Assembly: GCA_965207075.1 (NCBI GenBank)
Contig: CBDBLO010000002.1
Coordinates: forward strand, 896,001 to 960,000
Source of the DNA: Nitrosopumilus sp.
GTDB lineage: Archaea; Thermoproteota; Nitrososphaeria; Nitrososphaerales; Nitrosopumilaceae
Length of the DNA stretch: 64,000 nucleotides
Direction: 5' to 3'
Position 1 is the stretch's first letter. Every line of letters starts with the position of its first letter. The notes under the pieces are model-generated. The model did not search any database. It had not been told where the DNA came from and was given only the letters and a program-made list of their open reading frames with translations. This document shows positions 1,790 to 20,820 of this stretch, in pieces. The position numbers and the translations under genes were made by a program.

Positions 1790-1980
1790 GCGGCCCCCCG
1801 CGCGCACGGCCGTAGTTGGAGCCGGCCGCGACGCGCCGTCGCTTCCTCCCCTCCTTCTACCGCCGCCGCCGCCATTGCAGTTCCATGGGCAGGATTCAGT
1901 TATTATGTGTGGCCGGCTTTGTTATACACGTGAGGGATTCATCTGGCGTGGCCGTTTGCAGCCGTTCGGAACGCGTTGCA

Positions 1981-4900
1981 GTGAATGGGCGGCCCGCCGC
2001 GCGAGTACTGCGCCCGTATGTCCTGCTTGCAGTAGTGGCCGGCGCCCTGTTTGCGGCCGCAGCGGCTGCACCCGATGCCGCGGACCTACCGTTCTCACCA
2101 GCGCATGCGGCCCAGAACTCCAATGACAACCTGCTGGTGTCTGCTGAGAATCCCGAGTTCGACAATCACTTTGCGGGGTCGATGGTAGTCGAGGTCGTGG
2201 TCGCCGATCCGCTGGTCTCCGATACCAAGGGAGGGGCTGCCGGCGAGCCCAAGGTGTCCGTAAACGGGGCCACGCTGCGCATGGTCCAGTCCAGCAGCGG
2301 CCAGTGGTACGCCTACTTTGCAAACGAGGACGCCGCGAGGCGGGCCGATCAAATATCCCATGACGCGAGGCGGCCCGGACAGGGACTCGACTTTGGCGTC
2401 TTTTGCGGCCCCCGCACGCCTGCACCGGTACTGGGTGCCGAGTTTCCCGACTCTGACGGCGTGGCGATCCCACGCTCCGGCGGGCTCTCGAACTTTGCAA
2501 ACGGCGTGGAGCCGCTCTCGCCGTGCGGTGGGTTGGTGGATCCTGCATCGCCTGCGGAGAACAACGTGGTGAGATCCCCCCCGTCGCCCAGTGGGGGCGA
2601 GCCCTTGCATGGGCAGATCGGACTCAAGAGCGGGGCATGGCCGGTGATACAGCTCTTCTCGTTTGGCGGCGACGTGCGCATCGAGTACGAGCGGGGAGGC
2701 GGCGGCCCGCAGCGCGTCATCCTGCAGTATACTGACGATATTCGGACCATATCGTTCTCAACTGATCGCGGACAGGCAGAGCCGTATCCGGCGGGCGCCG
2801 AGGTCGTGCTGCGGGTGAGTGATCCGCAGCTCAACCAGGATCCCACCGACGAGGACTCTTGGACGTTTGGCACCTCCCCCGGCAGCCCCTCGGTGTTCTA
2901 CCAGGCGTTCTATGACGGGGGGCGCACCGCCGCAAACGGGGGCCCCGGACTTGCGGACCTGTATCCGCACCTTGGCAGGCTCGGGTTCGGCGACAACGGA
3001 TATCTGGGGGTCTCGCATGGCGGCGGAGACGTGCTTGAGCTGCGGCCCAACAGAAACCAGCCTGTCGGCAGCGTATACGACGGCGTGCGCCACTATGAGG
3101 ACATAGTAACGCTGGTCGAGAGCAGGCCAAACTCGGGACTCTTTGAGAGCGTGGATGCGTCGCACGTCTCAAACATGCGCATAGCGCCCGGCGCCGACAG
3201 GGGGACGTCTGCGGTAATATCGTACAACGACCGGTCGCTCTCTGTACTGACCGGCTCCCACACCGCCTCCCTGTCGCTTGGCGGTACTGCCGGTGCGGCC
3301 ACTGCCAGAGACGGCAGCCCCGTCCTGTCCGTGGACGCCTCGGGCTGGCGCTCGGGCCTGCGCATACCGGTGGTGCTCCAAGACGCCGATCAGAATACGG
3401 ATCCAAACCGGCGCGACAGGCTTGACGTGTTCCGTGACGGCGCCATCGTCCCGTCCATCAGGATTGGCTCGCCGCTGGCCCTGTCCTCCGCCTCCTCGGC
3501 CGCCGCATACCCGGACAGCGGCTCGTTTGAGGGGGCCGTGCCCATACCGGCGCGCTCGCCGGATCCGGTCTCGGCCCGCCTGCATCTTGATCTCGGACTG
3601 GCCGCGCTAGACCGCTCCGTCACATACGAGATGCTTGCAATCGACACGGGATACTCTGCGTCGCGCCTGTATGACGCGCTGATAGACGTATCTGGGGAGT
3701 CGAGCATCGGGACCAACTGGCTCAACATAGACATGCGCTCCCTTGGCGGCGCGAGGGGACTGGGCGGAGCGTCACTGCTCTTGTACGTGGGGGGAACGTC
3801 GGACGCGGATCCGATAATAATCGCGGACAGGCTGGGCGCGGCGCAGAGCCTGCTGTACGTGGATCCAGACCATGTGAAAAGGATTGCCTCTGGCCTGCAG
3901 GAGGGGGGCAGAGGAGGAGGAGGCACGGTGCATGCGGTGGTCGATTTCGGACCCGGCGGCGGGCTTGACGCCGGAGGCATGGGGGCCGCGGTCACGGCGC
4001 CCGTGGTGCTCGACGTCTTTTCCATTGGGGTGGAGGACAAGAAGATTGTAAACAACGCAATATACAGGCTTGAGCTCGAGGAGACTTCCGGGGACTCCGG
4101 TGTGTTTGGGGGCACGCTTGAGTTTGCCGCCGCAAACCAGCTCAACATTGACGATCCAGACTTTATACTTGATACCACCCCGATAGGAAGCGACGTAAAG
4201 TTCGTCACGCTCGGCCGGATGGTCGACGAGGATGCCATTACCATCACATACTCTGATCTGGCGCGGGTGGGGGCCGTCATACCGCAGTCCGTCTCGCAGC
4301 CCGAGACAGAGATCAAGTCGGAGAGCGGCAGGGTCTCCGTATACACGCCGTCCGGGCAGCTGAGGTTCGGCACGCCGGTTACGATCACGCTAAACGATCC
4401 GGATCTCAACCTGTCCGCGGACACCATCGAGGTGTATCTGGTGGTGGACGATTCGCGCCTGCCAAGCGTAGACACGGTGGGACGCGGGGCCCATACGATG
4501 CTTGAGGTAAAGTTCAAGGATGTCCGGTACAAGCGCTGCACAGTCGACGGCGTGCAGCACGGAGGCCTTGCATCTACGGGATTCGCGCTAGTGGAGACGG
4601 GCCCCGGAACCGGCGTGTTCGAGGGGGTGTTCAAGATGCCGACTCGAGTATGCGACAAGTCCGGCTCCGGTCTGATGTCCACCGCCGGAGGCGCCATGGA
4701 CGTCGTATACTACGACTCTGTTGACTCGTCGGGAAACCCAAGCGCGTTTAGCATGCTGCGTCAGCAGCAGCAGCAGCAACAATCCGACCCTTCATCCGGC
4801 GCCCGCACCCAATCCCCCCTGACGGTGGGAAATACGGGAAGCATATCGGGTTCTGCCGGCCCTGTACCTAACGATGATAATGACGATATCGGCCTCAGCG

Positions 4901-5586
4901 GCGCCGGTACTGTGGACGTCGAGATCAAGCAGCCCCGCAAGCCATCTGCAAGCCTTAGCGCCAACCGTGTCGCATTGGAGCGCGTGGGTGACGTCTCCTC
5001 CATTATACTTTCTGGCAACGTCGGCACGTATGTGGCGAACTCCATAGCTGCCATCACCGTCAAACATCCGGACGGAACCGAGCGGTCCTTTGACATGCGC
5101 GTGGGGGCCGATGGAAAATACGGCGCCATCATAAACCTGAAGGGTGGGAACGATCTGCAGGGCAACTATTCGGTATCCGTCGAGCACGGACAGAATGCAG
5201 ATCCTGTTGCTCTTCTCACGTTCTATGTGGAGTCGACCCCTTTGGTGATCCCTGATTCTGTGAGGGCCGCTGCATCCGAATGGTCCGCTGGTATGATATC
5301 CGATGCCGAGTTTGCCAAGGAACTGTCTGTCTTGGTGTCGATGGACATACTCGCGTACGATTCTGCCGTCCTTGGCGCCGGTGATGATGACGCGGGGCGG
5401 GCGCCGGTTGTGGGTGACAACGAGACGCAAGGGCACGGCGCAGCCGTGCCACCCCTTGCAGGATCTTCGACACTGCCAGCATGGATGGACGCACCGGTCA
5501 GATGGTGGACCATGGGACTCGTTCCTGACGAGACCTTTGTCGAGTCCGTCCAGTACCTGCTTGATGCGGGGATTGCAAGATTCTAG
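1981..5586 (+). CDS. Large secreted S-layer-protein paralogue (Nitrosopumilus SLP-like) with C-terminal Ig-like module and paired IPxW/WW anchor repeats
   Basis: Signal peptide, then NLLVSAENPEFDNHFAGSMVVEVVV...GEPKVSVNGATLRMVQ...WYAYFA...GLDFGVFC, which matches the recalled N-terminus of Nitrosopumilus S-layer proteins. Repeated LxETG..GVF motifs. GTG start at 1981 is inferred; the ORF track opens at 1816. Confidence 0.72.
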   Translation: MNGRPAARVLRPYVLLAVVAGALFAAAAAAPDAADLPFSPAHAAQNSNDNLLVSAENPEFDNHFAGSMVVEVVVADPLVSDTKGGAAGEPKVSVNGATLRMVQSSSGQWYAYFANEDAARRADQISHDARRPGQGLDFGVFCGPRTPAPVLGAEFPDSDGVAIPRSGGLSNFANGVEPLSPCGGLVDPASPAENNVVRSPPSPSGGEPLHGQIGLKSGAWPVIQLFSFGGDVRIEYERGGGGPQRVILQYTDDIRTISFSTDRGQAEPYPAGAEVVLRVSDPQLNQDPTDEDSWTFGTSPGSPSVFYQAFYDGGRTAANGGPGLADLYPHLGRLGFGDNGYLGVSHGGGDVLELRPNRNQPVGSVYDGVRHYEDIVTLVESRPNSGLFESVDASHVSNMRIAPGADRGTSAVISYNDRSLSVLTGSHTASLSLGGTAGAATARDGSPVLSVDASGWRSGLRIPVVLQDADQNTDPNRRDRLDVFRDGAIVPSIRIGSPLALSSASSAAAYPDSGSFEGAVPIPARSPDPVSARLHLDLGLAALDRSVTYEMLAIDTGYSASRLYDALIDVSGESSIGTNWLNIDMRSLGGARGLGGASLLLYVGGTSDADPIIIADRLGAAQSLLYVDPDHVKRIASGLQEGGRGGGGTVHAVVDFGPGGGLDAGGMGAAVTAPVVLDVFSIGVEDKKIVNNAIYRLELEETSGDSGVFGGTLEFAAANQLNIDDPDFILDTTPIGSDVKFVTLGRMVDEDAITITYSDLARVGAVIPQSVSQPETEIKSESGRVSVYTPSGQLRFGTPVTITLNDPDLNLSADTIEVYLVVDDSRLPSVDTVGRGAHTMLEVKFKDVRYKRCTVDGVQHGGLASTGFALVETGPGTGVFEGVFKMPTRVCDKSGSGLMSTAGGAMDVVYYDSVDSSGNPSAFSMLRQQQQQQQSDPSSGARTQSPLTVGNTGSISGSAGPVPNDDNDDIGLSGAGTVDVEIKQPRKPSASLSANRVALERVGDVSSIILSGNVGTYVANSIAAITVKHPDGTERSFDMRVGADGKYGAIINLKGGNDLQGNYSVSVEHGQNADPVALLTFYVESTPLVIPDSVRAAASEWSAGMISDAEFAKELSVLVSMDILAYDSAVLGAGDDDAGRAPVVGDNETQGHGAAVPPLAGSSTLPAWMDAPVRWWTMGLVPDETFVESVQYLLDAGIARF

Positions 5587-7151: not shown

Positions 7152-8402
7152 GGCGCTGTCCAACTTTTCACCGCCAAAGTCACGAAAAGCTTAAAGATCA
7201 TGACGCGCCCCGGTGGCAAAGCTTATTGATCATATTGTAATCGCCATGTCAATGGCTTCCAAAAGAAGCAAGAAGGACGACAAGAAAAGACAGGATGCCC
7301 ATGTGCGGGCATACAAGGCGGAACGGCGAAGGCAGAAGATCAAGGAGTGCCGCGACTACAAGACGTATGAGAGAAAGCGAAGGGGCGAGGGCAGGGTGAA
7401 GAGGATCAGGATCAAGCAGCTAGCTAAACTGATCCGCGACACCCTGCCAGACGCCACAGATACGAACGTTTCCAGGATCGTGTGCGTCGTAGACATGACA
7501 TACCGCGGCCACTCGTACCGCAGACACGTCGAGTACCTGGATGAGCATTCAGGCTCCGTAAGCATGTACGGGCTAAAAAGAGTTCCCTCGAAATCCGGCC
7601 TCCACGGCTGGGCAGGGGAGCTTGCAGGCGACATGGAGTTCGTGCTGGGGCTCCTCGCCAGACAGGCCGGGGACGACGCGCGCGGCACCCTGCTGGGCGA
7701 CTCGTCGGGGTTCTCCATAGTGAAATACGAGGACTGGGAGGACGCCAAGCGCGGGATCATATCCCGGCGCGAGTTCGACAAGCTCCACATACTGGTCGCG
7801 CCGCACGGCAGGATCGCGACGTGCGCGGTAACCGCGGGACGGCGGCACGACTCGCCGGTGTTCCGGGAGATGTACGGGCGCATACCGCAGGGAAGCGGCC
7901 GCACCATACTGGACGCCGCGTACCTGTGCAAGGCAAACTGCAGGATGATCGCGCGCAGCGGGCGCAGTCCGGTCATATGCCCAAAGGGGAACTCCCGGGC
8001 AAGGGGGCTGCATCCGATGGGCCAGATGCTGAAGTGGTACGAGAGCGACCGTGACGGGTTTGACAGGGCATACCACCAGCGGAGCCTGGTCGAGACCGCG
8101 TTCTCCGTCATCAAGGAGAGGTTTGGCGCCGTCGCGCGCGCAAAGACGTTCCGCATGAGGCAGCTGCAGCTCGCGCTAAAGTGCGTCTGCTACAATCTCG
8201 TCGCCTGATTCCGCATCCGCCCGCAGGGGGGCAGTGCACCCCCCCAGCGTACGCTGCAGACTGATGCGCCACACGCAACCAAAAACCGGAGACTTGCCGC
8301 CGGACATGCCACAATTGCGGCAGAAACGGACCCGCCCATCGCCTAAAGCCCGCTTAATTGTCCATAAAATTGGGGCGCGGCTTACAAGAGTTGGACAGCG
8401 CC
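7152..8402 (+). mobile_element. Complete insertion sequence, IS5 family (IS903-group-like), 1251 bp
   Basis: 14-bp perfect TIRs GGCGCTGTCCAACT (7152-7165) and AGTTGGACAGCGCC (8389-8402). Flanked by 9-bp direct repeat AACGCGCAC (7143-7151 and 8403-8411). One intact transposase ORF. Confidence 0.95.
7213..8208 (+). CDS. DDE transposase (IS5/IS4 superfamily, DDE_Tnp_1-like)
   Basis: GDSSG...KLHILV...HDSP...LDAAY...YHQRSLVETAFSVIK catalytic pattern. Start may be ATG 7246. Confidence 0.92.
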   Translation: MAKLIDHIVIAMSMASKRSKKDDKKRQDAHVRAYKAERRRQKIKECRDYKTYERKRRGEGRVKRIRIKQLAKLIRDTLPDATDTNVSRIVCVVDMTYRGHSYRRHVEYLDEHSGSVSMYGLKRVPSKSGLHGWAGELAGDMEFVLGLLARQAGDDARGTLLGDSSGFSIVKYEDWEDAKRGIISRREFDKLHILVAPHGRIATCAVTAGRRHDSPVFREMYGRIPQGSGRTILDAAYLCKANCRMIARSGRSPVICPKGNSRARGLHPMGQMLKWYESDRDGFDRAYHQRSLVETAFSVIKERFGAVARAKTFRMRQLQLALKCVCYNLVA

Positions 8403-8409
8403 AACGCGC

Positions 8410-8433
8410 ACAAACAAGTTATAAGCTGTTTGT
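8410..8433 (+). promoter_or_regulatory. TATA box (TTATAA, 8419-8424) bracketed by a 7-bp inverted repeat; promoter/operator of the 8447 gene
   Basis: ACAAACA-agttataagc-TGTTTGT. The TATA ends ~23 nt upstream of ATG 8447. Confidence 0.5.
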
Positions 8434-8446
8434 ACCGGTATTCGTC

Positions 8447-9352
8447 ATGGTAGTGACGGCGGCCGCATCCCCGGCGCTGTTCGCAGTGACCGCCGTCGGA
8501 CTGCTGGTGGCCGTTGGATACGCACCGGCCTGGCCGTCGGCCGCCCACCACGCGTACGCGGACACCCTGGCGGTCCAGATCCCAGACACGGCCGCCGGCA
8601 GCCCGTTTACGCTGGGCGCGTCGGATACCGGCACCATCGGCACGTTCTACTTTGACGCGTCGTTTGAAGGAACAACAACCCCGATCTCGACTGAATACGG
8701 CGACTACTACTGCATAGGATGGGAGGCGCGATGCCAGGGACTGCAGGATGACAGCGTGCCGATAATTGTGTTTCTGGAGGATGACGAGGGGCGCGACGCG
8801 CTCGTCAACTTTACGGTCATGCAGAGGGTGCTGGGCGACGAGAACATCGGCCCGTCAAACACCGTCAGCGTATCTGAGTCCGATAACATCGCAGTGCTTC
8901 CGGAGCCTCCGGGGGACTTTGGAGCCGTGACTCACATCGCCATTGACTTTAGAATCGACGCCAAGTCGTTCAAGGAGGCCCTGGTGACGGATCCGGACTT
9001 TGAGGGGCGCCACGTGTTCAACTACGACTTTAGGTCCCTGCAGCTGGGGGACGACGCGCACCCCCTCTTTTCCATAATAAGCGCCGACGGCCCCATAGGG
9101 CCCGACATCGACGGGTACTATGCGCACTCCATCCTGGACTCCCCCCTGACGGAGCGCGCCGGGACGATTCAGATACCACACAGGCACGTGCTGGCGCTAG
9201 ACCAAATAGACGACGACAGGAACATCGGGGTGATAATCGGTTTTGTGAACGCGGACTACACGGACTACACTCCACAGCACCTGGCCGATGCCGACATGCC
9301 CATAGCGTTCAACGTATGGGCAGAGCCGGCGCCCCCAAGCGTGTGCCGCTGA
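8447..9352 (+). CDS. Secreted protein resembling an isolated internal module of the S-layer-like protein
   Basis: Hydrophobic signal peptide ending AYA; acidic mature part. IAIDF...FNYDFRSL...PIAFNVW aligns by eye with LAIDT...LNIDMRSL...PVVLDVF in 1981..5586. The ORF-track start at 8234 lies inside the IS. Confidence 0.6.
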   Translation: MVVTAAASPALFAVTAVGLLVAVGYAPAWPSAAHHAYADTLAVQIPDTAAGSPFTLGASDTGTIGTFYFDASFEGTTTPISTEYGDYYCIGWEARCQGLQDDSVPIIVFLEDDEGRDALVNFTVMQRVLGDENIGPSNTVSVSESDNIAVLPEPPGDFGAVTHIAIDFRIDAKSFKEALVTDPDFEGRHVFNYDFRSLQLGDDAHPLFSIISADGPIGPDIDGYYAHSILDSPLTERAGTIQIPHRHVLALDQIDDDRNIGVIIGFVNADYTDYTPQHLADADMPIAFNVWAEPAPPSVCR

Positions 9353-10174: not shown

Positions 10175-11755
10175 TCAGAGTTTCTTTGCCTGTATACGTG
10201 GCATGGATACGGACCTGCTCCTTGCATACTTTGAGATGATGTCGTCGGGGGTTCTTCCGTTGAACAGGTCCTTGCAGAGCCCCCTGAGGTACCTCATTAT
10301 GGCCCACGTGCCCGCCTTTAGCATTCCGTACATGAACACCTTCATGGGGGGCCCGTACGTCTTGTTCCTGAGTATTATTGGTATGATGTCGTTGATCACG
10401 CGCAGGTTGTTCTCCCAGCACTTCCAGAACAGCGTGAACTGTGCCTCGTTGAGGTTGCCAAAGTGCATCGAGTTCTTCTCGCTAAAGTCCTGGTACAGCA
10501 GGGGGGCCACCAGTCCCCTAAAGTCCATCTCCCTAAAGTCGCTCATCATGTCTATGGTATACTGTATGTCGTCCGGCGTCTCGTCGGGCCACCCTATGAT
10601 TATGGTGGCCGCCGGGAACCAGTGGTTCTCGTTGAGTATGCGCGCGCCCTCCCTCACCACGCTGCCCCACTCGTCAGTGGAGAACGGGCGCGTCTTGACG
10701 CCTAGGTGTTTTTTGACCATTGCCGGCGACACGGTCTCGATGCCCAGGTTGGTCGCAAGCCACCTGCCCGTCTCGTGCTGCATGTTGATCTCGGCAATCT
10801 TGCGCATCAGGTCGGGGTCGGCCGCCACCGCGGAGAACGTCATGTGCGTCGTGCCGACAAAGTTTGCCCCCAGCCCCTTCAGGCCGCTCCACAGTTCCGT
10901 GATTGCGTCGCTGTTGGGGCGCATGTCGCGGTTGTCGCACCCGTACAGCAGCATCTCGTCGGAGTGCAGCCATATGGAGTCAAACCCATAGTCCAGGTTT
11001 ACCTTGGCCTCGCGCTGCAGCCTGTCGAGCGGAAGGTCCTTTTTGGACCTCTTGTTGACGTCGCAAAAGTCGCACCCCCTTCCGCATCCCCGCATTGCCT
11101 CTATGAGCGAGTTTATGGTGGGCGACTCGATGACTGGGATGTTCTGTATGTTCCTGACAAAGCAGTGCATGAGTTCCGGCGCGTCCCCCTTTTCAAGGTC
11201 GTGGAACAGGTCCACTGCAAGCTCGTCGGCCTCCCCGGTCACCACCGTGTCTATGCCGTGGATCTTCATGCGGTCGCTCTTTGCAAGCTCCCACGCCCCG
11301 TTGCCTCCGACGACCACCTTGAAGTCGTACTTTTTCTTTAACTGTATTATGCTGGCGCACATCTTTTTGAACTTCATCGCCACGTACGAGAGCTTTTCGG
11401 GGGACATCGTGGTCGTGACCGGGGCCATCCCAAGCGGGTCCATCACGTTGATTCCGACCACCTTTGTGTCGGGACCTATGGACTTTTCAAGCATCTCGGG
11501 GTGCGCAACGAAGATGTCCTCCCTGCTGTAGTTGCCCTGCAGAAGGGCGCTCTCCACCCTCCGGAGGCCGATCTGGGCGACCTTTACCTCGCCGGTGACC
11601 GGATCCGTCTCGACAGACGGGCAGAACACCTTGTCGAAGACCCATTCAGGCAGTACCTCGTAGGGCCCGCACGCTATGAACCCGTACAGAAAGTTGCCCC
11701 TGTAGTTTGTCATGAGGCTGCGGTCGGCCGTGAGTACGATGCGCCTGCCATTCAT
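10175..11755 (-). CDS. B12-binding-domain radical SAM protein; GDGT ring synthase (GrsA/GrsB)-like
   Basis: CGRGCDFC (CxxxCxxC). N-terminal IVLTADRSLMTNY..FLYGF and GLRRVESAL...VGINVMDPLG resemble Grs-family proteins as recalled. Radical SAM call is firm; Grs call is moderate. Confidence 0.7.
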   Translation of the reverse strand: MNGRRIVLTADRSLMTNYRGNFLYGFIACGPYEVLPEWVFDKVFCPSVETDPVTGEVKVAQIGLRRVESALLQGNYSREDIFVAHPEMLEKSIGPDTKVVGINVMDPLGMAPVTTTMSPEKLSYVAMKFKKMCASIIQLKKKYDFKVVVGGNGAWELAKSDRMKIHGIDTVVTGEADELAVDLFHDLEKGDAPELMHCFVRNIQNIPVIESPTINSLIEAMRGCGRGCDFCDVNKRSKKDLPLDRLQREAKVNLDYGFDSIWLHSDEMLLYGCDNRDMRPNSDAITELWSGLKGLGANFVGTTHMTFSAVAADPDLMRKIAEINMQHETGRWLATNLGIETVSPAMVKKHLGVKTRPFSTDEWGSVVREGARILNENHWFPAATIIIGWPDETPDDIQYTIDMMSDFREMDFRGLVAPLLYQDFSEKNSMHFGNLNEAQFTLFWKCWENNLRVINDIIPIILRNKTYGPPMKVFMYGMLKAGTWAIMRYLRGLCKDLFNGRTPDDIISKYARSRSVSMPRIQAKKL

Positions 11756-11780
11756 AAACCTGACTTTCTCTTATGTGTAT

Positions 11781-12686
11781 TTATGATTTTCTAGAATGTC
11801 GCCTTTTCGTGCCTGGCCAAGGCCGGCGCGTGCCGCCGGATCCGCCTGTATTGCCGCTGTCGTCCCCTCCGCCTGCGGCATCGCCGTCCGCGTCTTTCCC
11901 GCCTCCGCGGGCCGCCGCCCCGCGCGCCCTGTTTGCGATCATTGACGCAATGCTTCCGGCCGCCGCCCCGCCGTCTATGTTTACGACTGCCATCCCAAGC
12001 GAGCAGCTCTGCAGCATCGATGCCAGGGCGGCCACGCCCCCCTGGCCGTACCCGTACCCCACGGATGTCGGCACGCCTATGACCGGCACGTCCATGAGTG
12101 AGGAGACCAGCGTGGCAAGCGCGCCCTCCATCCCCGCCACCACTATGACGCATCCCACGCCGGCGCACGTCATCTCCTTCAGCATGGGGAATATGCGCTG
12201 CAGCCCGGCCACGCCAACGTCGTATCCGGTGACGCATCTGCAGCCCATGGCCTCGCAGACTATTTTGGCCTCTTCTGCCACGCCCACGTCGGAAGTGCCT
12301 GCGGCAAGTATCCCGACTGTGGCGCCCGTCTGCCTTATGGGCCTGGTGTGCGCCAGTATCGTCGACGCGTTCCTGCCGGTTGACACTGATGCCCCCAGTC
12401 CCTTGGCATACGATATGATGCTGTCGTGGTCCTCCTCTCTTATGCGCGATATCACGGCCACGCCCTCTTTTTCGAGCATCCTTTTTGCAATCTCCTTTGT
12501 CTCGTGGACGCGCTTGGACTCGGCAAGTATTATTTCTGGAATGCCGCCCCTGCGCATTGACCTTTTTGTGTCGATCCTTGCATAGTCCTCTACCTCCTCT
12601 ATGGCGTATATCGAGAGGAGCTTTTCTGCCTCCTGCGCCGTGACGTCTCCGGACTTTAGCGCCTGGAGTATCTCTTGGACGTCCAT
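11781..12686 (-). CDS. larB: Nickel-pincer cofactor biosynthesis protein LarB (NaAD carboxylase/hydrolase)
   Basis: AGTSDVGVAEEA, DVGVAGLQR, AGMEGAL, PVIGVPTSVGYG, VVNIDGG motifs; low-complexity C-terminal tail. Confidence 0.92.
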   Translation of the reverse strand: MDVQEILQALKSGDVTAQEAEKLLSIYAIEEVEDYARIDTKRSMRRGGIPEIILAESKRVHETKEIAKRMLEKEGVAVISRIREEDHDSIISYAKGLGASVSTGRNASTILAHTRPIRQTGATVGILAAGTSDVGVAEEAKIVCEAMGCRCVTGYDVGVAGLQRIFPMLKEMTCAGVGCVIVVAGMEGALATLVSSLMDVPVIGVPTSVGYGYGQGGVAALASMLQSCSLGMAVVNIDGGAAAGSIASMIANRARGAAARGGGKDADGDAAGGGDDSGNTGGSGGTRRPWPGTKRRHSRKS

Positions 12687-12842
12687 CACGAAACAGCGCG
12701 GCGTGCGTCTAAAAAAAGCTTGAGTCTGTATCCGCCGCATGGGCCCGGGCCCCTGCAGGTCCGCTCCTGCCGGACTCCGCCTTCGGATTTCACGGGCCAG
12801 GGGCTTGGGCTTGTGCCAATTTGTCACAATGGCGGGCGGTGC

Positions 12843-13760
12843 TCATGCCTCGATTGAGGCTATCGCGCTCTTTACCGACTCGGCCGATTTTGCAAGGGCC
12901 GCCCTCTCCTCGTCGTTGAGGTCGAGTTCTATTATCCTCTCCACCCCGTCGCGGCCGATCACGGCCGGCACGCCCATTGTGATGCCCGAGTAGCCGTACT
13001 CGCCTTCAAGCGGCGTCGAGACGGGCAGCACCTGCTTTTTGTTCCTGACGACGGACTCTATTATGGACGACACTGCGTTTCCGGGCGCGTGCACGGTGGC
13101 CCCCTTCAGCTCTATCACTCTTGCAGCCACCTGCCTCGTGTCGGTTGTCAGCTTGCCAAGCTCCTCCCTCTGCAGTATGTCGTGCAGCGGCACGCCTGAT
13201 ACGGACGAGAACCTCGTCAGCGGCAGCATGTTCTCCCCGTGCTCGCCTATGACAAGCGCCCTTATCGAGTCTCGGGAGTGTCCCGTCGCCTCGTGTATGA
13301 ACTGCTTGAATCTTGACATGTCGAGCATTCCGCCCATTCCAAATACGCGGCTCCTGTCGAATCCAGAGACCTTGTATGCGACGTACGCCATGGGATCAAG
13401 CGGGTTTGTCACTGGTATCAGCATCGAGTCGGGCGCGTGCCTTTTCACCTCGCCAATCACGCTCTTTACTATGGACGAGTTGATCTTCAGCAGGTCCATC
13501 CTGGTCATGCCGGGCTTTCTGCCGGAGCCTGCCACTACGACTACGATGTCTGACCCCCTCATGTCGGCATAGTCGTTGGAGCCTCTCACCTCCACGTCCG
13601 TGCCGAGTTCTGCAAGCGCGTGGTTGATGTCCATGGCCTCTCCCTGCGGCAGCCCCTCGACCACATCGAGCAGCAGTATCTGATCGTCAAGCTGCTTTAG
13701 CGCAGAGAAGAGCGCGGCGTCTCCGCCCACCTTGCCGGAGCCTATGATCGTAATCAACAT
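12843..13760 (-). CDS. mdh: Malate dehydrogenase (LDH-like archaeal type)
   Basis: IIGSGKVG nucleotide-binding loop, [10 protein letters not shown] substrate loop, TNPLD, GEHGE. Confidence 0.93.
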
Positions 13761-14037
13761 GTGGGATGGACAGGAGTCGATAATTAAACCTAGATCAGTG
13801 GCCCGCCCACTCGCACGCGCAGGCCGTCGGCAGGCTCGCGATTGGAGCGGCTGGATTCCGGTCGTGTGCACGCGCAGAGCCGGCCGGCCCAGGCGCCGCC
13901 ATGTCAATGCGGCCGGGTAACCGGCCAGTCACTGGCCGCTTGCTGGTGGGGGCTTTGTGGGATGCCTGCCGTGCGTGAATTCGGCGCCCGTGCGGGCGTT
14001 TAGTCGAATTTATAAGCATTTTTTCGTGTCAAGACTC

Positions 14038-15510
14038 ATGGTTCTGGTGATAGATCCGCAGGTGGCCGGCATCTCCGGCGACATGTTCCTGTGCGCCCTT
14101 GTCGACATGGGCGCCAACGGCGGCGCCGTCATAGACGGTGTCAGAAAATCTGCCGTACACCTGGACGGCTGCGCCATAGACTCGATGGAGTTCAGGCCGA
14201 CCACCAAAAACGGCACCTCGGCGACAGGGCTGTCCTTGGAGGCCCGGGACGGGCATTGCGACGACGGCGCACCCCGGCACCCCACACGAGCAGGCTCGGA
14301 GATGCTGGATGCCGTGAGGATCTCGTCTGCAGGCCTTGGGCTGTCTGATGAGGCCCGCTCGTACGCGTCTAGGTGCGTGGAGATCCTGGTGACGTCCGAG
14401 TCAAGGGTGCACGGCGTCACGCCGGATTCGGCAATACTCCACGAGGCGTCTGACGTCGATACCCTGGTTGACATAATCGGAACCGCGGTCGCGCTTGACG
14501 ATCTGGGGCTTTTCGGGCAGCGCATGGTATGCCTTCCTGCATGCGTGGGAAACGGACTGGTCTCGTTCTCGCACGGGACGGTGTCGAACCCTGCGGGCGC
14601 CATACTTGAGATATTCGAAGAGTCCGGGCTGCAGATACTGGGCTCGCAGGCCGGCCGCGAACTCACGACCCCGACTGGGGCCTGCATGCTTGCCGCACTA
14701 TCCCCCGAGCCGGTCTCCTCTTATCCTTGCATGCGTGTGGAGTCAGTCGGGTATGGGGCCGGGCAGGCCGACGTCGAGGGGATCTCAAACGTGCTGAAGC
14801 TCGTGCGCGGATCTGAGCCTCGTGCGCCTGCTGCAACTGCTGCAGCTGCCGCCGCCTCCGCTGGCCAAGCCCTGGGGCACGGCGGCCTCAGGACCGAGCG
14901 CATATGCGTGCTGGAGACCAACGTCGATGACGTGTCCGGCGAGGTCCTTGGAAGCGTGGTGGGCAGGCTCATGGCGGCCGGGGCAAAGGACGTATCCTTG
15001 TTTCCCGGACTGACAAAAAAGAACAGGCCGACCAGCCTGATATCTGTCATGTGCCCCGAAGAGGCGTCAGGACGCCTCGCTGGGCTGCTGATGGCCGAGA
15101 CCGGCACGCTGGGGGTCCGGATATCGGCCTCGGAGAGGATCGTGGCGCAGAGGCGGCAGCTGAAGATTGATGTGACCATATCGGGCAAACGGTTCGAGGT
15201 GCGGTACAAGGAGCGCTTGCCCGGCACGCCGGGCACTGCCGGCCGCTACGACAAAACCTCTGGATTCAAGATAGAGCATGATGACATCCAGGCCGTCTCA
15301 GAGGAGCTGCACGTCCCGTTCAGGGATGCCGAACTGCTGCTGCGGCACCGTATAACGGAGAGGCGGCTTGATGGCCACGGCCGCGGCGGTGACGACGGCG
15401 ACGACAAAGAAGATGCTGCTGCTGCTGCAGCTGCTGCTGGCACCGGCAGCAGCCCTGCCGGCCGCGCCGACGCAGGAGCAGCAAGAGGGGAAGGAGGCGG
15501 TGCCGCGTGA
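14038..15510 (+). CDS. larC: Nickel insertase LarC (fused LarC1/C2)
   Basis: AGISGDMFLCAL, LHE..DTLVDIIG, ELTTPTGA, GYGAG, LETNVDD, ETGTLGVR. TTTATAA ~25 nt upstream. Confidence 0.93.
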   Translation: MVLVIDPQVAGISGDMFLCALVDMGANGGAVIDGVRKSAVHLDGCAIDSMEFRPTTKNGTSATGLSLEARDGHCDDGAPRHPTRAGSEMLDAVRISSAGLGLSDEARSYASRCVEILVTSESRVHGVTPDSAILHEASDVDTLVDIIGTAVALDDLGLFGQRMVCLPACVGNGLVSFSHGTVSNPAGAILEIFEESGLQILGSQAGRELTTPTGACMLAALSPEPVSSYPCMRVESVGYGAGQADVEGISNVLKLVRGSEPRAPAATAAAAAASAGQALGHGGLRTERICVLETNVDDVSGEVLGSVVGRLMAAGAKDVSLFPGLTKKNRPTSLISVMCPEEASGRLAGLLMAETGTLGVRISASERIVAQRRQLKIDVTISGKRFEVRYKERLPGTPGTAGRYDKTSGFKIEHDDIQAVSEELHVPFRDAELLLRHRITERRLDGHGRGGDDGDDKEDAAAAAAAAGTGSSPAGRADAGAARGEGGGAA

Positions 15511-16454
15511 AGCGGCTCCGTGATCTCACCCGGTGGTTTGAGGGCAGGCGGGGGGCCCTCGTGGCCCTCTCCGGCGGGGTGGACAGCGCCCTCGTGGCAT
15601 ACGCGGCGTTCTCCCGTCTCGGGGACTCTGCCGTCGCAGTCACGGCGGACTACCGTACCCTGTCACAGGAGGAGCTTGGTGCCGCAAAGTCCGTATGCTC
15701 CGAGATCGGGATCCGGCACGTGATGCTCCAATATGACGAGCTTGAGAACCCTGACTTTGTAAGGAACGACAGCCTCAGGTGCTACCACTGCCGGTCGGAG
15801 CTTGGGGGGCGCATCGCGAAACTTGCCGAGGAGATGGAGGGGCACTGGGACGTGGTGGACGGCACGAACCTTGACGATCTTGGCGATTATAGGCCCGGCA
15901 TAGAGGCGATGAGAAAAAACCGAGTCCAGAGCCCGCTGGTGGAGACGGGCTTTACCAAGGATGACGTGCGGGCAGTCGCCAGGGATGTGGGACTCTCCGT
16001 ACATGACAGGCCGTCAAACTCCTGCCTTGCATCTCGAATACCTTGGGGCGAGCGCATTACTGCCGAGCGCCTTGCGCGCGTCGAACTCGGGGAGCGGATA
16101 GTGCGCCAGATGTCCGGAGCGCGGCAGGTGAGAGTGAGGGACGTGGGGGGCTCCGCGAGGATAGAGGTGGAGCCTGAGGCGCTCTATGTGTTCGATGACG
16201 GCGACGACCGCGTCCGTGACGGCAACTGCGGCGCCACGCACCGGGGCAAGCCCGACGGCGGCAGCCGTCTAGATGCGCGCCGCGGAGTTGCCGATGGCCG
16301 CGCCGCGGATGCCACCGGTCCCGCGCGGGGACTTAGGGGGCGCCGGCTGATGCAGGCAATCACAGAGCGCCTTGTCCTGATCGGGTTTGACGGGGCCGCC
16401 CTTGACCCCGAAGGATACAGGCCCGGCAAAATCAACGACGTGGTGACGCATTGA
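15507..16454 (+). CDS. larE: ATP-dependent sulfur transferase LarE (CxxC...C, Fe-S type)
   Basis: PP-loop ALSGGVDS, RCYHCR, DGTNLDDLGDYRPG, SNSCLASRIP. Overlaps larC by 4 nt. Confidence 0.93.
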   Translation: MKRLRDLTRWFEGRRGALVALSGGVDSALVAYAAFSRLGDSAVAVTADYRTLSQEELGAAKSVCSEIGIRHVMLQYDELENPDFVRNDSLRCYHCRSELGGRIAKLAEEMEGHWDVVDGTNLDDLGDYRPGIEAMRKNRVQSPLVETGFTKDDVRAVARDVGLSVHDRPSNSCLASRIPWGERITAERLARVELGERIVRQMSGARQVRVRDVGGSARIEVEPEALYVFDDGDDRVRDGNCGATHRGKPDGGSRLDARRGVADGRAADATGPARGLRGRRLMQAITERLVLIGFDGAALDPEGYRPGKINDVVTH

Positions 16455-17770
16455 ACTTCATATACCTTGACAATGCGGCGTCCACCCGCATGTATCCGGA
16501 TGTGGTTGACGCCATGCGCCCGTATCTGGAGGGCCAGTACGGAAACCCGTCCTCGATTCATCGCGGTGGACGGATGGCCAGAAAGGCGGTCGAAGCGGCG
16601 CGCAAGCAGGTGGCACGCCTGATAAACGCCATGCCCCGGGAGATCGTATTCACGTCCGGCGGGACGGAATCCAACAACATGGCCCTCTGCGGAGCTGCGC
16701 TGGCCGCGTCTGAGACGCGGCGCGCGTGTCGCATAATCACCTCGTCCATAGAGCACGATGCGGTACTGGAACCGTGCATGGATCTGGCACGGCGGGGAAC
16801 CGCCTCAGTCGAGTATCTGCCCGTCGACCGGCGTGGAACGGTTGACACCAGAAGACTTGCCAAACTGCTTGGCGTGGATGAGAACAGCGGCTGCGGTGAC
16901 GGCTGTGATGGAAGTGTCAATAATGGCGACGGCCACGGAGGCGGCAGCGCCGGCGCTACGCTGCGGGATCCGCGGCTCAAACCGCCTGCCGCGCCCAATC
17001 CTGCATCCGGGCAGCTGACGCTTGTCTCCGTGATGTATGCCAACAACGAGGTGGGGACAATCCAGCCGGTCCGGGAGATTGCACGCATGTGCCGCGCCGC
17101 AGGGGCGCTGTTCCACACCGACGCGGTCCAGGCCGCCGGAAAGATCCCAGTTGACGTCAAATCACTCGGGGTCGACATGATGTCAGTATCGTCGCACAAG
17201 ATACACGGACCTAAGGGTGTCGGGGCCCTCTACGTACGCGCCGGGACAAGCCTGGCGCCGCACGCGCTGGGTGGGGGACAGGAGGATGGAATGCGCTCGG
17301 GAACGGAGAACGTGGCCGGAATTGTGGGGTTTGGGGCGGCCGCCCGCATCGCGCGTGACGGCATTGGCATCCACATGAGCCACACGCGTGCACTGCGTGA
17401 TCTTCTCGTATGCCGGATACTTGAGGAGATACCCCAGTCCGCGCTGAACGGCGATCCGGCCGCCCGCCTTCCGGGAAACTCGCACTTTACGTTTCTTGGC
17501 GTCAACGGAGAGGATCTGCTGGTAAAACTCGACGAGTATGGCGTTGCCGCCTCCACAGGATCGGCCTGTTCTGTACACACACAAAAGGCGTCCCACGTAC
17601 TGCAGGCAATGGGGTTCACGCATGAGCAGATAGCCGGCTCTCTGAGGCTTACTCCTGATACGCTCAACACCGGTGACGAGGTGGATCGCGCAGTAGACAT
17701 CCTCAAGAGGGCGGTGGCAGAACTGCGGGCCGTCTCCCCCTTCAAGTCAAAGTACGGGTTTGACGCGTAG
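16451..17770 (+). CDS. iscS: Cysteine desulfurase (IscS/NifS family)
   Basis: YLDNAAST, FTSGGTESNN, HTDAVQA, SSHKIHGPKG (PLP lysine), STGSAC catalytic Cys. Overlaps larE by 4 nt. Confidence 0.93.
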   Translation: MNFIYLDNAASTRMYPDVVDAMRPYLEGQYGNPSSIHRGGRMARKAVEAARKQVARLINAMPREIVFTSGGTESNNMALCGAALAASETRRACRIITSSIEHDAVLEPCMDLARRGTASVEYLPVDRRGTVDTRRLAKLLGVDENSGCGDGCDGSVNNGDGHGGGSAGATLRDPRLKPPAAPNPASGQLTLVSVMYANNEVGTIQPVREIARMCRAAGALFHTDAVQAAGKIPVDVKSLGVDMMSVSSHKIHGPKGVGALYVRAGTSLAPHALGGGQEDGMRSGTENVAGIVGFGAAARIARDGIGIHMSHTRALRDLLVCRILEEIPQSALNGDPAARLPGNSHFTFLGVNGEDLLVKLDEYGVAASTGSACSVHTQKASHVLQAMGFTHEQIAGSLRLTPDTLNTGDEVDRAVDILKRAVAELRAVSPFKSKYGFDA

Positions 17771-17871: not shown

Positions 17872-18834
17872 CTACTGGGACGCTGCGGATCCGCCATAGC
17901 GGGCGGTCAGAACACCATACCGCTTGCCTCTAAGCAGCATGACTGATGCCAGCATTACTCCAGCAACTGCGGCCATTACGGCTATCATGTGCTCGAACTC
18001 TGGCACCGCATACGTCCCTATTATGGCGATCTCTGAATCGCCCTCCAGAAAGTCGATTGTAATCTCCCTTGAAGTCTGTCCGGGAGATGACTCGTCGTAT
18101 GCGGTCTCCACGTCGTCGATCAGAACTATAAAGATCTCGTCCGTGGTGCTGGATCCGTCTGTCCTCTCGGCCCCTATGTACTTGCGCGGCAGTTCCATGG
18201 TGATAGAGCCGCCACTGCTGCCGGTCACGCTGATGTCTACTAGGAGCGTAAAGTCCCTCCAGTCGAGCGTCATGTCCTCCACCGTGCCGCCGGTTATGAC
18301 GTACTTTACATCAAACGTCTCGCTTCCCGCGTCCACCTCTGTGCTCCCAGTTATCACCTCTGAGCTGCCGCCCGGCACGCCGGTCCCTGGCACGATGGTG
18401 AACTCTGTAGTGGCCTTGCCGTCAGGGCCATATCTGACACTCACCTCGTACTCTCCGGGCTTTGCCCATTTTGCGCCCTCGGTCTTTACTATATCCCAGT
18501 ACGAGTTGTCGCCTGCCGGCGTAATCTGGTTTATGTAGACGGGGTTGACGTCCGTGAATACCTGCAGTATTATCGGCGTGTCTATGACATTGGTCGCAAT
18601 CTTGCCTGATATTATGATGGCATCCCCGTTCCTGTATTCGGCCCTGTCAGTGGTCACTGTTACGATCTGATTCTGCGGGGCTATCTGGCGCGTCCCGCTT
18701 TCGTCTCCCTCCTCCTGCGCGGCCGCGTCTGAGACCGTCCAGACTGCCGGAGCCGCGGCGCCAATCGCTGCTGCCGCCACCAGCACCACCATAAAAAAAC
18801 GCCGTGCATCCCACCGCAGAGTCATCCCGCTCAC
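17872..18834 (-). CDS. PEFG-CTERM-type surface protein (variant motif VPEFE)
   Basis: Signal peptide, Ig-like domain, IAIIGTYAVPEF followed by TM and basic tail. Confidence 0.85.
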   Translation of the reverse strand: MSGMTLRWDARRFFMVVLVAAAAIGAAAPAVWTVSDAAAQEEGDESGTRQIAPQNQIVTVTTDRAEYRNGDAIIISGKIATNVIDTPIILQVFTDVNPVYINQITPAGDNSYWDIVKTEGAKWAKPGEYEVSVRYGPDGKATTEFTIVPGTGVPGGSSEVITGSTEVDAGSETFDVKYVITGGTVEDMTLDWRDFTLLVDISVTGSSGGSITMELPRKYIGAERTDGSSTTDEIFIVLIDDVETAYDESSPGQTSREITIDFLEGDSEIAIIGTYAVPEFEHMIAVMAAVAGVMLASVMLLRGKRYGVLTARYGGSAASQ

Positions 18835-18959
18835 TAAGTTCGTATATACTCATTACTATTTAAAAGAAGTAATGCCGGCCTGCGCGGAGGTCGGCCTGCA
18901 CACACGTGCCTTTGGCCAGCACGCGCCGCCAATAATAAAAAATGAAAAATGCCGTCTTT

Positions 18960-19880
18960 CTAGAGCCTCGGCGCAATTATGCTTAGCCTTGATCTTGCAG
19001 ACACTACTATCACTGAGACAATGGCGACTGCCAGTATCATGGCCGCGATGGTACCGAACTCTGGTATGACATGCGTGCCGATCACCTCTATCACCTCTGT
19101 CTCGGGGCCGAATTCTACTGTGATCGTACCGTCTTCGCCGATCATATAGTCGTCAGACTCCTCGTTGTCCACCAGAACCATGAAGACCCCGTCGATGACC
19201 TCGCTGGAGGGCATGAGCACGAGCGTTCCGTCGCCGGACGCCTCGATCATAATGACAAGCGAATTGTCCTCGGTGTTGGCGCTTATGCCGGTTACCGTTC
19301 CGCCCTCAATGGAGTATGGGAGGCACGCGTCCATGACTGTCAGCTCATTTGCTGCGCACTCCCCGTCCCCTGCCATCACCTCGTCCATGGCCAGTACGGG
19401 ATTGCCGGTACCGCCTACGAGCTCGATGTGGATCCTGTTTGAGTTGTGGCCCTGCTGAACCTTTATGGTGTAGACACCGTCTGACGCCCACAGCCTGCTT
19501 GCGGTGTTGAGGGCCACCTCGAACGTGTTGTCATCCTTGACATCGATCTGATCGATAGTAACCACGCTTCCGATTGCGTTCCTCACCATGACGGTGACCT
19601 GGGGCATGCTCCCGGTGCCTGCCACGCTGGGATTGGATACGTATCCACTAAGCGTTACTATCTCGTCGTGGCCGTACACTTCCTTGTCAGTCCATACTGA
19701 TATGGGGACTGACCTTAGCAGGTGCTCTTCTGCAACTGCAATGGAATCTTCAGCACTGCAACCCACGCATGCTTCTGGAAGGCCCTGGTTCTCGAACTCT
19801 TGGGCATGCGCTGATGATATGGTTATGGTACTGACTACTGCCAAAACGACCAGTAGCGCTAAAGATGCACTGATATTCAT
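18960..19880 (-). CDS. PEFG-CTERM sorting-domain surface protein
   Basis: Signal peptide ending AHA, CVGC near N-terminus, VIPEFGTIAAMILAVAIVSVIVVSARSRL. Start 19880 fits the upstream TTTAAATA. Confidence 0.9.
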   Translation of the reverse strand: MNISASLALLVVLAVVSTITISSAHAQEFENQGLPEACVGCSAEDSIAVAEEHLLRSVPISVWTDKEVYGHDEIVTLSGYVSNPSVAGTGSMPQVTVMVRNAIGSVVTIDQIDVKDDNTFEVALNTASRLWASDGVYTIKVQQGHNSNRIHIELVGGTGNPVLAMDEVMAGDGECAANELTVMDACLPYSIEGGTVTGISANTEDNSLVIMIEASGDGTLVLMPSSEVIDGVFMVLVDNEESDDYMIGEDGTITVEFGPETEVIEVIGTHVIPEFGTIAAMILAVAIVSVIVVSARSRLSIIAPRL

Positions 19881-19938
19881 CTTGATGGGATCTGCACCTC
19901 TCACTATTTATATATTTAAAAAGTAAAAAATTGTCCCT

Positions 19939-20820
19939 TTACTGCCCGGCGACGATGCTGAGTCTTGATCTCGCCGACACGACAATTACGGATACTATGG
20001 CCACTGCAAGTATCATGGCGGCGATGGCGCCAAACTCTGGCACTACTACGCCGTCTGCAATGTCCACCTCGGCAGACGCCGTGTACAACGGATCATCGTT
20101 CTGCTGTGCAGTTACCGTGTACATGCCGTCGCTCTTCCAGAGGTTGCCGCCCGTGATGATGATTGCATCATACATGCCGTCCAAGTTGGCCGTGGCCTGC
20201 TCTACCGTCACGACGTTGCCGTTTGGAGCCGTTACGGTCAGGGTTATGTCCTCGTTGAGCTTGTCCGTCATTCCAGTCACCATGATGGTGTTCGAGCCTA
20301 TCTCTCCGGTAGCCTCTATGGTAATTCCGGTCGGCTCGCGCATGCTGGCGGTCGTGTCATATACCATGAGCTTTTCAAGGTTCCCGTCTGTCATAGCGGT
20401 GGACTGGGCTGCCCCGCCGACGATCATTACTGGCAGGGACACCCTGTACTGGGAGGTCTCTGCGCTGATCCCGCCTGACGCCGTGACCGTGTACAGTCCG
20501 TCGGCCTTCCACAGCTGGCTGTCCGGATCGATGACAAACGACGTCTCAAACACGCCGTTGCCGTCTGGAGTGACCTGATCCACGCTGACCACGTTGAGGC
20601 CGTTAGGCGACGTTACGGTAAATGTAATGTCAGTCGGCATGGATTTTACTATGGTGCCCATGACCATAATGGTGTCCGATCCCTCGTCGGCCATCACCGT
20701 CATCTCGATTCCTTGCCCGTCGCTCTGTGCAAGGGCGGCCTGTTGCTGGGCCGGCATCGTTGCCAAAAGCGATACTGCAAGTAACGCTACTGTTATAGAC
20801 GTTAGTGAGCCTGCGTTCAT
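19939..20820 (-). CDS. PEFG-CTERM surface protein with two tandem Ig-like domains
   Basis: Internal repeat (TIMVxG...DITxTVTxPNG.NVVxVxQ...LWKxDGxYTVTA) twice; VVPEFGAIAAMILAVAIV. Confidence 0.9.
   Translation of the reverse strand: MNAGSLTSITVALLAVSLLATMPAQQQAALAQSDGQGIEMTVMADEGSDTIMVMGTIVKSMPTDITFTVTSPNGLNVVSVDQVTPDGNGVFETSFVIDPDSQLWKADGLYTVTASGGISAETSQYRVSLPVMIVGGAAQSTAMTDGNLEKLMVYDTTASMREPTGITIEATGEIGSNTIMVTGMTDKLNEDITLTVTAPNGNVVTVEQATANLDGMYDAIIITGGNLWKSDGMYTVTAQQNDDPLYTASAEVDIADGVVVPEFGAIAAMILAVAIVSVIVVSARSRLSIVAGQ

Follow-up and report, generated by a model that had tools for sequence, protein, structure and literature searches.

Which protein uses the cofactor nickel-pincer nucleotide (NPN) in ammonia-oxidising archaea? 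The question is raised by a 64,000-nucleotide stretch of a Nitrosopumilus sp. genome (GenBank assembly GCA_965207075.1, contig CBDBLO010000002.1, positions 896,001 to 960,000; hereafter the window), in which the NPN biosynthesis genes larB, larC and larE lie around a malate dehydrogenase gene (mdh) and beside a cysteine desulfurase gene. An earlier reading of these letters alone (the sequence-only reading) had noticed this arrangement without a larA client, and had proposed that the cofactor serves either a distant LarA acting on malate or an unrecognised NPN-dependent enzyme. Our results support this interpretation in part: the biosynthesis set, the absence of canonical LarA and the mdh linkage were confirmed, but not the distant LarA as NPN user. 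The leading reading is an unrecognised NPN-dependent enzyme. The NPN set is complete, ancestral and arranged around the sole mdh of the genome, and its cofactor most likely serves an unrecognised protein that is not LarA-like (probability about 0.6).

Lar and malate dehydrogenase (MDH) assignments were made by comparing NCBIfam equivalog bit scores with their curated cut-offs, with Pfam scans alongside (Table 1). LarB, LarC and LarE all pass their equivalog cut-offs, and the NPN biosynthesis set is real. LarB carries an AIRC domain (E=7.3e-15) and passes the NF033503 cut-off; since the family match begins only at residue 85 of the 348-amino-acid (aa) open reading frame (ORF), the true start of larB may lie further in. 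LarC matches PF01969 (E=3.8e-94), with LarC1 and LarC2 fused in one ORF and both above their cut-offs. The genes form two divergent units, mdh-larB on the minus strand and larC-larE-desulfurase on the plus strand, with larC divergent from mdh. Read from the sequence, larC and larE overlap by 4 nt (GTGA, 15507-15510), as do larE and the desulfurase gene (TTGA, 16451-16454). These are the overlaps that the sequence-only reading had described, and the genes and coordinates it gave were also borne out by the ORF coordinates and family scans.

Alignment of the window LarE to Lactiplantibacillus (Lactobacillus) plantarum LarE (5udq) revealed the PP-loop motif SGGVDS and a C-x-x-C pair that the Lactobacillus protein lacks, and placed a third Cys one residue after the position of L. 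plantarum Cys176. This CXXC-C pattern with its one-residue shift is that of [4Fe-4S]-dependent, non-sacrificial LarE (PMC9283937), and the window LarE is accordingly predicted to be of the [4Fe-4S]-dependent, catalytic CXXC-C type. In vitro, [4Fe-4S] LarE is recharged by IscS (PMC9283937). In agreement, the CXXC-C mechanism fits a desulfurase gene directly behind larE, to which the overlap suggests that it is translationally coupled, and the desulfurase is probably the sulfur donor that recycles LarE. The enzyme falls below every equivalog cut-off and is therefore placed only at the level of the NifS/IscS family (class-V aminotransferases); its best NCBIfam match is NifS TIGR03402 (454 bits against a cut-off of 531), and IscS reaches 330 bits against 643. 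The earlier label iscS thus holds for a cysteine desulfurase at family level but not for an IscS equivalog. As the genome has several further class-V paralogues, the larE-linked desulfurase can be a dedicated copy.

Canonical LarA was searched for in the window, the genome and the family. None of the 54 window ORFs scanned matched Lar_N (PF09861) or LarA_C, in line with the lack of a larA-like ORF in 64 kb reported earlier, and Lar_N gave no match at E<=0.01 in the whole genome, so that canonical LarA is absent there too. Lar_N was likewise missing from all 24 same-genus genomes searched and from every one of the 37 genomes that represent the genus in the family sample, many of them single contigs at 99% completeness. 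Across the family (Nitrosopumilaceae), it was found in 7/201 genomes and 3/24 genera. This count agrees with a report of LarA in only three sediment clades of the family, a paper whose main text is silent on LarB, LarC, LarE and nickel (PMC8397731).

The biosynthetic genes are retained almost without exception, down to genomes of about 1 Mb. LarB (counted at E<=1e-20) was present in 191 of the 201 family genomes, in 143/144 high-quality ones and in 27/27 genera. In a class-level sample, where families carry code labels running from f1, f4 and f9 to f26, LarB was found in f1 (162/163 genomes), f9 (8/8), f15 (32/32) and f4 (4/4), and in 5 of the 43 genomes of the remaining ten families: f10 (0/2), f18 (0/8), f19 (1/8), f20 (1/1), f21 (1/7), f22 (0/6), f23 (0/8), f24 (0/1), f25 (1/1) and f26 (1/1). 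These family and class tallies, and the family tally of the distant LarA homologue below, include a few unpublished genomes, in counts only. AmoA (PF12942) was detected in f9 (4/4), f15 (6/6) and f4 (2/2) and in 0/43 other-family genomes, among 55 tested with f1 not included. LarB tracks the ammonia oxidisers.

Gene order was compared in 25 family loci, of which 20 came from genomes picked for long contigs and 5 from named metagenome-assembled genomes (MAGs). The mdh linkage proved to be conserved: larB and mdh were adjacent in 25/25 family loci, larC-larE diverged from mdh in 23 and were accompanied by the desulfurase gene in 22; in the two loci without a nearby larC, this gene lay 11 kb and 750 kb away. 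Outside the family, the larB-mdh/larC-larE-desulfurase layout was found in all four f15 loci (there without the radical SAM, that is S-adenosylmethionine, gene that follows larB in the window), and was loosely kept in one of two f4 loci, the other running off the end of its contig. In f9, larB stood alone in 2/2 loci and a divergent mdh-larC pair was present in 2/3 genomes. The two-unit layout around mdh is ancestral to several ammonia-oxidising archaeal families and kept in nearly all. Two LarB-positive genomes that lack AmoA had larB, larC and larE together, with neither mdh nor the desulfurase gene. In 73 larB loci of other lineages, neither mdh nor the radical SAM gene occurred, and the desulfurase gene was found in 1, larC in 19 and larE in 27. 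In a streamlined 1.2-Mb family genome (L097, G088:C1:219500-239400; G and L numbers are genome and locus codes), the order larB, mdh, larC, larE was kept and the desulfurase gene was not found beside larE.

The mdh product is an LDH-like, NAD-dependent MDH that passes the NF004863 cut-off, and among PDB entries it comes closest to 7aob, also a malate dehydrogenase (E=8.2e-90). Homology begins at residue 50 of the ORF, and the motifs GxGxxG and R-K-P-G-M-x-R can be recognised when the protein is aligned to 7aob. The protein carries Arg at the position that discriminates substrate, and is a standard malate-type enzyme. Lying directly upstream of larB on the same strand, mdh is the sole Ldh_1_C gene of the genome (1 match, whole genome).

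From family membership, LarB (a carboxylase/hydrolase acting on nicotinic acid adenine dinucleotide, NaAD) would convert NaAD to the dicarboxylated mononucleotide P2CMN, and LarC, a CTP-dependent cyclometallase, would insert nickel. Between these steps LarE, an ATP-dependent sulfur insertase, would thiolate both carboxyl groups and be recharged by the desulfurase translated directly behind it. Considering the gene identities, motifs, synteny, phyletic patterns and fold, we infer that NPN is made and needed in these archaea and that its user is not the distant LarA homologue discussed below. We further propose, tentatively, that NPN is a core and possibly essential cofactor of all ammonia-oxidising archaea, with a non-LarA-like user tied to the malate/oxaloacetate node or to the ammonia-oxidation lifestyle. 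Several points tell against an unrecognised user. NPN production is predicted from family membership, and common regulation or the inheritance of gene order, not a common function, may lie behind the mdh linkage. Because the ammonia oxidisers form essentially one clade, the match of LarB with AmoA amounts to about one evolutionary event, not a statistical association. Also, the 73 larB loci of other lineages gave no candidate client, their recurrent neighbours being larC and larE, an ATP-binding cassette (ABC) ATPase (18 loci) and lineage-specific housekeeping genes. Further points of this kind are given with the alternatives they favour.

The first of these alternatives is that the genome's distant LarA homologue, a member of LarA homologue (LarAH) group 12, is the NPN user after all, through non-canonical NPN binding and with another, possibly malate/oxaloacetate-related, substrate. 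We consider this unlikely. The homologue (545 aa) is encoded at G000:C2:1878123-1879757 (L115:1498-3135, minus strand), about 970 kb from the lar locus, and the genome encodes no other protein of the LarA superfamily. The homologue had no Pfam match at E<=0.1, a weak match to the longer NCBIfam LarA model (E=2.4e-5, G000:C2:1878138-1878638), and matches to the C-terminal halves of four NPN-racemase models, the best being LarAH6 malate racemase (E=5.6e-12, 45 bits against a cut-off of 500). The protein is core in the family, with orthologues of 360-390 aa in 199/201 genomes; the copy in this genome has, after residue 30, an extra low-complexity insert rich in Gly and Asp (about 170 residues), which is absent from 16/17 aligned orthologues. 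One relative has a short insert elsewhere, and a second, smaller insert is seen here at about residues 272-296. When 1.84 billion proteins were searched with a group-12 profile, 494 representatives were recovered (E<=1e-3); of 50 scanned, 34 had no Pfam family and 4 had Lar_N, the latter being canonical forms of 411-423 aa.

Comparison of group 12 with 11 canonical LarA sequences by hhalign gave a probability of 100% (E=5e-44, 388 columns). An AlphaFold model of a 360-aa orthologue from the same genus (sharing 53% identity with the copy in this genome; 76-sequence alignment) had a predicted local distance difference test score (pLDDT) of 96.1 and a predicted template modelling score (pTM) of 0.93, and in a Foldseek search of the PDB the top 17 ranks were all LarA-family proteins, led by 6c1w_A (E=2.5e-21, TM 0.80). 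A model of the 545-aa protein itself (18 close sequences, mean pLDDT 55.7) was not used for fold searching. As modelled, the group-12 homologue truly has the LarA fold, with full-length homology.

The residues on which LarA depends, however, are not kept in group 12, where His108, His174, Lys184 and His200 are all replaced. The H-F-F...G-G-R-K motif of canonical LarA, which holds His174 and Lys184, reads F-D-[GP]-L-F-G...T-R; Thr stands in place of Lys184, and in place of His174 either Asp or Leu, according to which alignment is used (hhalign, HMMER). His108 has no counterpart in either alignment, and His200 has none with HMMER and corresponds to an invariant Tyr with hhalign. His108 and His174 are presumably the catalytic histidines of LarA. 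The other two, Lys184 and His200, bind NPN in LarA (PMC9283937).

The group-12 protein is also kept where the pathway is missing. It was found in 25/25 genomes of f10, f18, f21 and f23, of which 24 are without LarB. When five f21 genomes were rechecked for LarB at E<=1e-3, only PurE-level matches appeared, and LarC was found in 0/5 rechecked genomes; the protein is full length in such genomes, including the closed genome G033, rated 100% complete. In an alignment of 36 orthologues, one Asp, one Leu and one Met were the only positions whose conservation was confined to LarB-positive families, with no Cys, His or Lys and thus no ligand-type residue specific to those families.

Published data on group 12 point in the same direction. 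In a supplementary dataset of Desguin et al. 2020 (PMC7583248), group 12 includes proteins of Nitrosopumilus and Nitrososphaera, which share their N-terminal motif (MPEIWL-YG) and signature replacements with the homologue here. That paper judges it unlikely that groups 12, 13 and 16 use NPN (PMC7583248), and refolded LarAH12 of Ca. Nitrososphaera gargensis showed no activity in any of its seven assays, one of them with malate (PMC7583248). Its Table S1 gives the group-12 context as acetyltransferase, orotate phosphoribosyltransferase, Zn protease and PqqC (PMC7583248). Here, the conserved neighbours of the group-12 gene were a phosphoribosyltransferase (36/42 loci), an M50 protease, GNAT and Haem_oxygenas_2, not lar genes.

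On the other side, the group-12 protein shares the full LarA fold, is core in the family and has no rival of its superfamily in this genome, and the inactivity of LarAH12 comes from refolded protein and covers seven substrates only. The group-12 gene usually lies 40-60 kb from larB in family genomes, and in G054 larC-larE-desulfurase have been relocated to about 3 kb from it, which weakly favours a link. In this G054 locus (L181, G054:C1:90000-108000), the surface-protein genes described below moved along with larC-larE-desulfurase, away from larB-mdh. In sum, the distant LarA proposed by the sequence-only reading exists, but it is probably not the NPN user and can be largely set aside. Because canonical LarA is absent, and because the group-12 protein is without the binding and catalytic residues and is kept without the pathway, the user is most likely not LarA-like.

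A second alternative is that a Lar product or intermediate has some other role, for example in nickel handling or in control of the NaAD/NAD pool, which could explain the link to an NAD-dependent dehydrogenase. This we regard as quite improbable. It would account for the failure to find a client in the genome, the family or the 73 outside larB loci, and LarB consumes an NAD-pathway intermediate (PMC7583248). In addition, larB, which is beside mdh here, is beside a gene for NAD-dependent glycerol-3-phosphate dehydrogenase in 11 Nitrospirota/Nitrospinota loci (L051, L054, L055, L057, L058, L064, L070, L071, L076, L082 and L085), a second case of larB adjoining the gene for an NAD-dependent dehydrogenase of a hydroxy compound. 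However, three Lar enzymes and a dedicated sulfur donor are kept together, which argues for a finished nickel cofactor and not an intermediate; none of the Lar proteins is known to act in this way; and larBEC from a larA-less cyanobacterium make functional NPN (PMC11796402). It is highly improbable that the locus is an ordinary split operon with canonical larA elsewhere and an accidental mdh linkage, a case largely refuted by the Lar_N search and the synteny: the genome is not closed and larA could in principle lie in the unassembled part of an assembly that is 95.4% complete, and canonical LarA does occur in a few sediment lineages (PMC8397731), but same-genus genomes at 99% completeness are also without it and the mdh linkage is conserved across families.

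The locus can be compared with known lar systems. Like the L. plantarum lar operon, it has LarB, LarC and LarE above their equivalog cut-offs and a conserved LarE PP-loop; unlike that operon, it has no canonical larA, its LarE is of the predicted CXXC-C cluster type and not the sacrificial Cys176 type, a desulfurase gene is joined into the operon, and mdh lies between larB and larC. With the [4Fe-4S] LarE and IscS of Thermotoga maritima (PMC9283937) it shares CXXC-C, a third Cys shifted one residue from L. plantarum Cys176, and a desulfurase as the probable sulfur donor. In T. maritima, however, the desulfurase genes are distant from larE (PMC9283937) and canonical LarA homologues are present (Lar_N control search), whereas here the desulfurase gene appears coupled to larE and is linked in 22/25 family loci. 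The distant homologue belongs to LarAH group 12 (PMC7583248) by N-terminal motif, signature replacements and gene context. The authors of that paper doubted the homology of group 12 to LarA, whereas homology and (modelled) fold are established here; this genome's copy also differs in carrying the Gly/Asp-rich insert.

About 15% of genomes carry larBCE without larA, and a user protein with a different sequence and fold has been proposed (PMC11796402). The same paper acknowledges as an open question which proteins besides LarA use NPN. It includes most cyanobacteria among the larBCE-positive, larA-negative organisms, which like the present case have a complete set and no LarA-like client, and ammonia-oxidising archaea join this known class. 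Unlike the cyanobacterial case, the lineage is archaeal, the set occurs almost universally in each of the AmoA-positive families sampled, and the linkage to mdh and the desulfurase gene is conserved. No open-access paper was found that discusses larB, larC or larE in ammonia-oxidising archaea. Within the open-access literature, the near-universality in these archaea, the retention in genomes of about 1 Mb and the arrangement with mdh and a dedicated desulfurase are apparently new in print.

Ammonia-oxidising archaea thus appear to offer a large, ecologically dominant and cultivable lineage in which to look for the NPN user, and largely setting aside the group-12 protein narrows the search for the client. 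The results suggest that marine and soil nitrifiers need nickel for more than urease; if NPN is indeed a core cofactor of all ammonia-oxidising archaea, nitrification by archaea worldwide would involve a hidden need for organometallic nickel. An operon-level desulfurase with a cluster-type LarE also supports the catalytic sulfur-transfer model, so far known in vitro only.

The window is a segment of an archaeal chromosome, with genes for RNA polymerase, ribosomal proteins and the exosome. The genome has 2.23 Mb in 2 contigs with 60% G+C, and the nearest public loci are from Nitrosopumilaceae MAGs, with LarB 86-93% identical; the sequence-only reading was right to name an ammonia-oxidising archaeon as host. 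All six genes of Table 1 were together in 21/25 family loci. Sponge metatranscriptome contigs from two studies (90-99% identical) overlap the radical SAM gene, larB, mdh, larC and larE in part, are possibly of DNA origin and carry no strand or co-transcription information.

Table 1. Genes of the lar-mdh locus, with positions in the window and family evidence
Gene	Position	Strand	Family evidence
Radical SAM gene	10175-11755	-	PF04055, E=1.1e-9
larB	11781-12827	-	NF033503, 215.2 bits (cut-off 175)
mdh	12843-13907	-	NF004863, 372.5 bits (cut-off 283)
larC	13957-15510	+	TIGR00299 (LarC1), 134 bits (cut-off 90); NF052512 (LarC2), 101.6 bits (cut-off 50)
larE	15507-16454	+	TIGR00268, 237.4 bits (cut-off 150)
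Cysteine desulfurase gene	16451-17770	+	Aminotran_5, E=4.6e-80; under all NCBIfam equivalog cut-offs

The radical SAM gene does lie just past larB, with a gap of 25 nt and not 26 bp as first given. Its product is of the B12-binding type, with a weak TIGR04013 match in addition to PF04055; against the PDB it gave only weak RimO-type matches (E=1e-4) and no close solved relative, and its Atlas clusters carry the generic name 'B12-binding radical SAM'. The gene was beside larB in 24/25 family loci but never in other AmoA-positive families or in the 73 loci of other lineages, and the protein is 79-91% identical across family genera, compared with 47-60% for LarB and 39-64% for Lar proteins. Comparison of synteny inside and outside the family gave no evidence that the gene belongs to the Lar system, and it is probably an unrelated neighbour.

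Downstream of the desulfurase gene lie three paralogous ORFs of about 300 aa (17872-20820, minus strand), each with a signal peptide, a C-terminal P-E-F-G followed by a hydrophobic anchor, and no Pfam match. These surface-protein ORFs adjoin the lar-linked desulfurase gene in most family loci. As candidate NPN clients they were rejected, because these features mark them as secreted and membrane-anchored. Elsewhere in the window, Pfam assigned no family at E<=1e-5 to a 1256-aa ORF (1816-5586, plus strand). The region just upstream of the cluster (7213-9352, plus strand) contains a DDE transposase gene (PF01609, E=5e-17) and an ORF of 372 aa with no Pfam match, the latter recurring at the corresponding site in two close MAG loci (L009 and L010).

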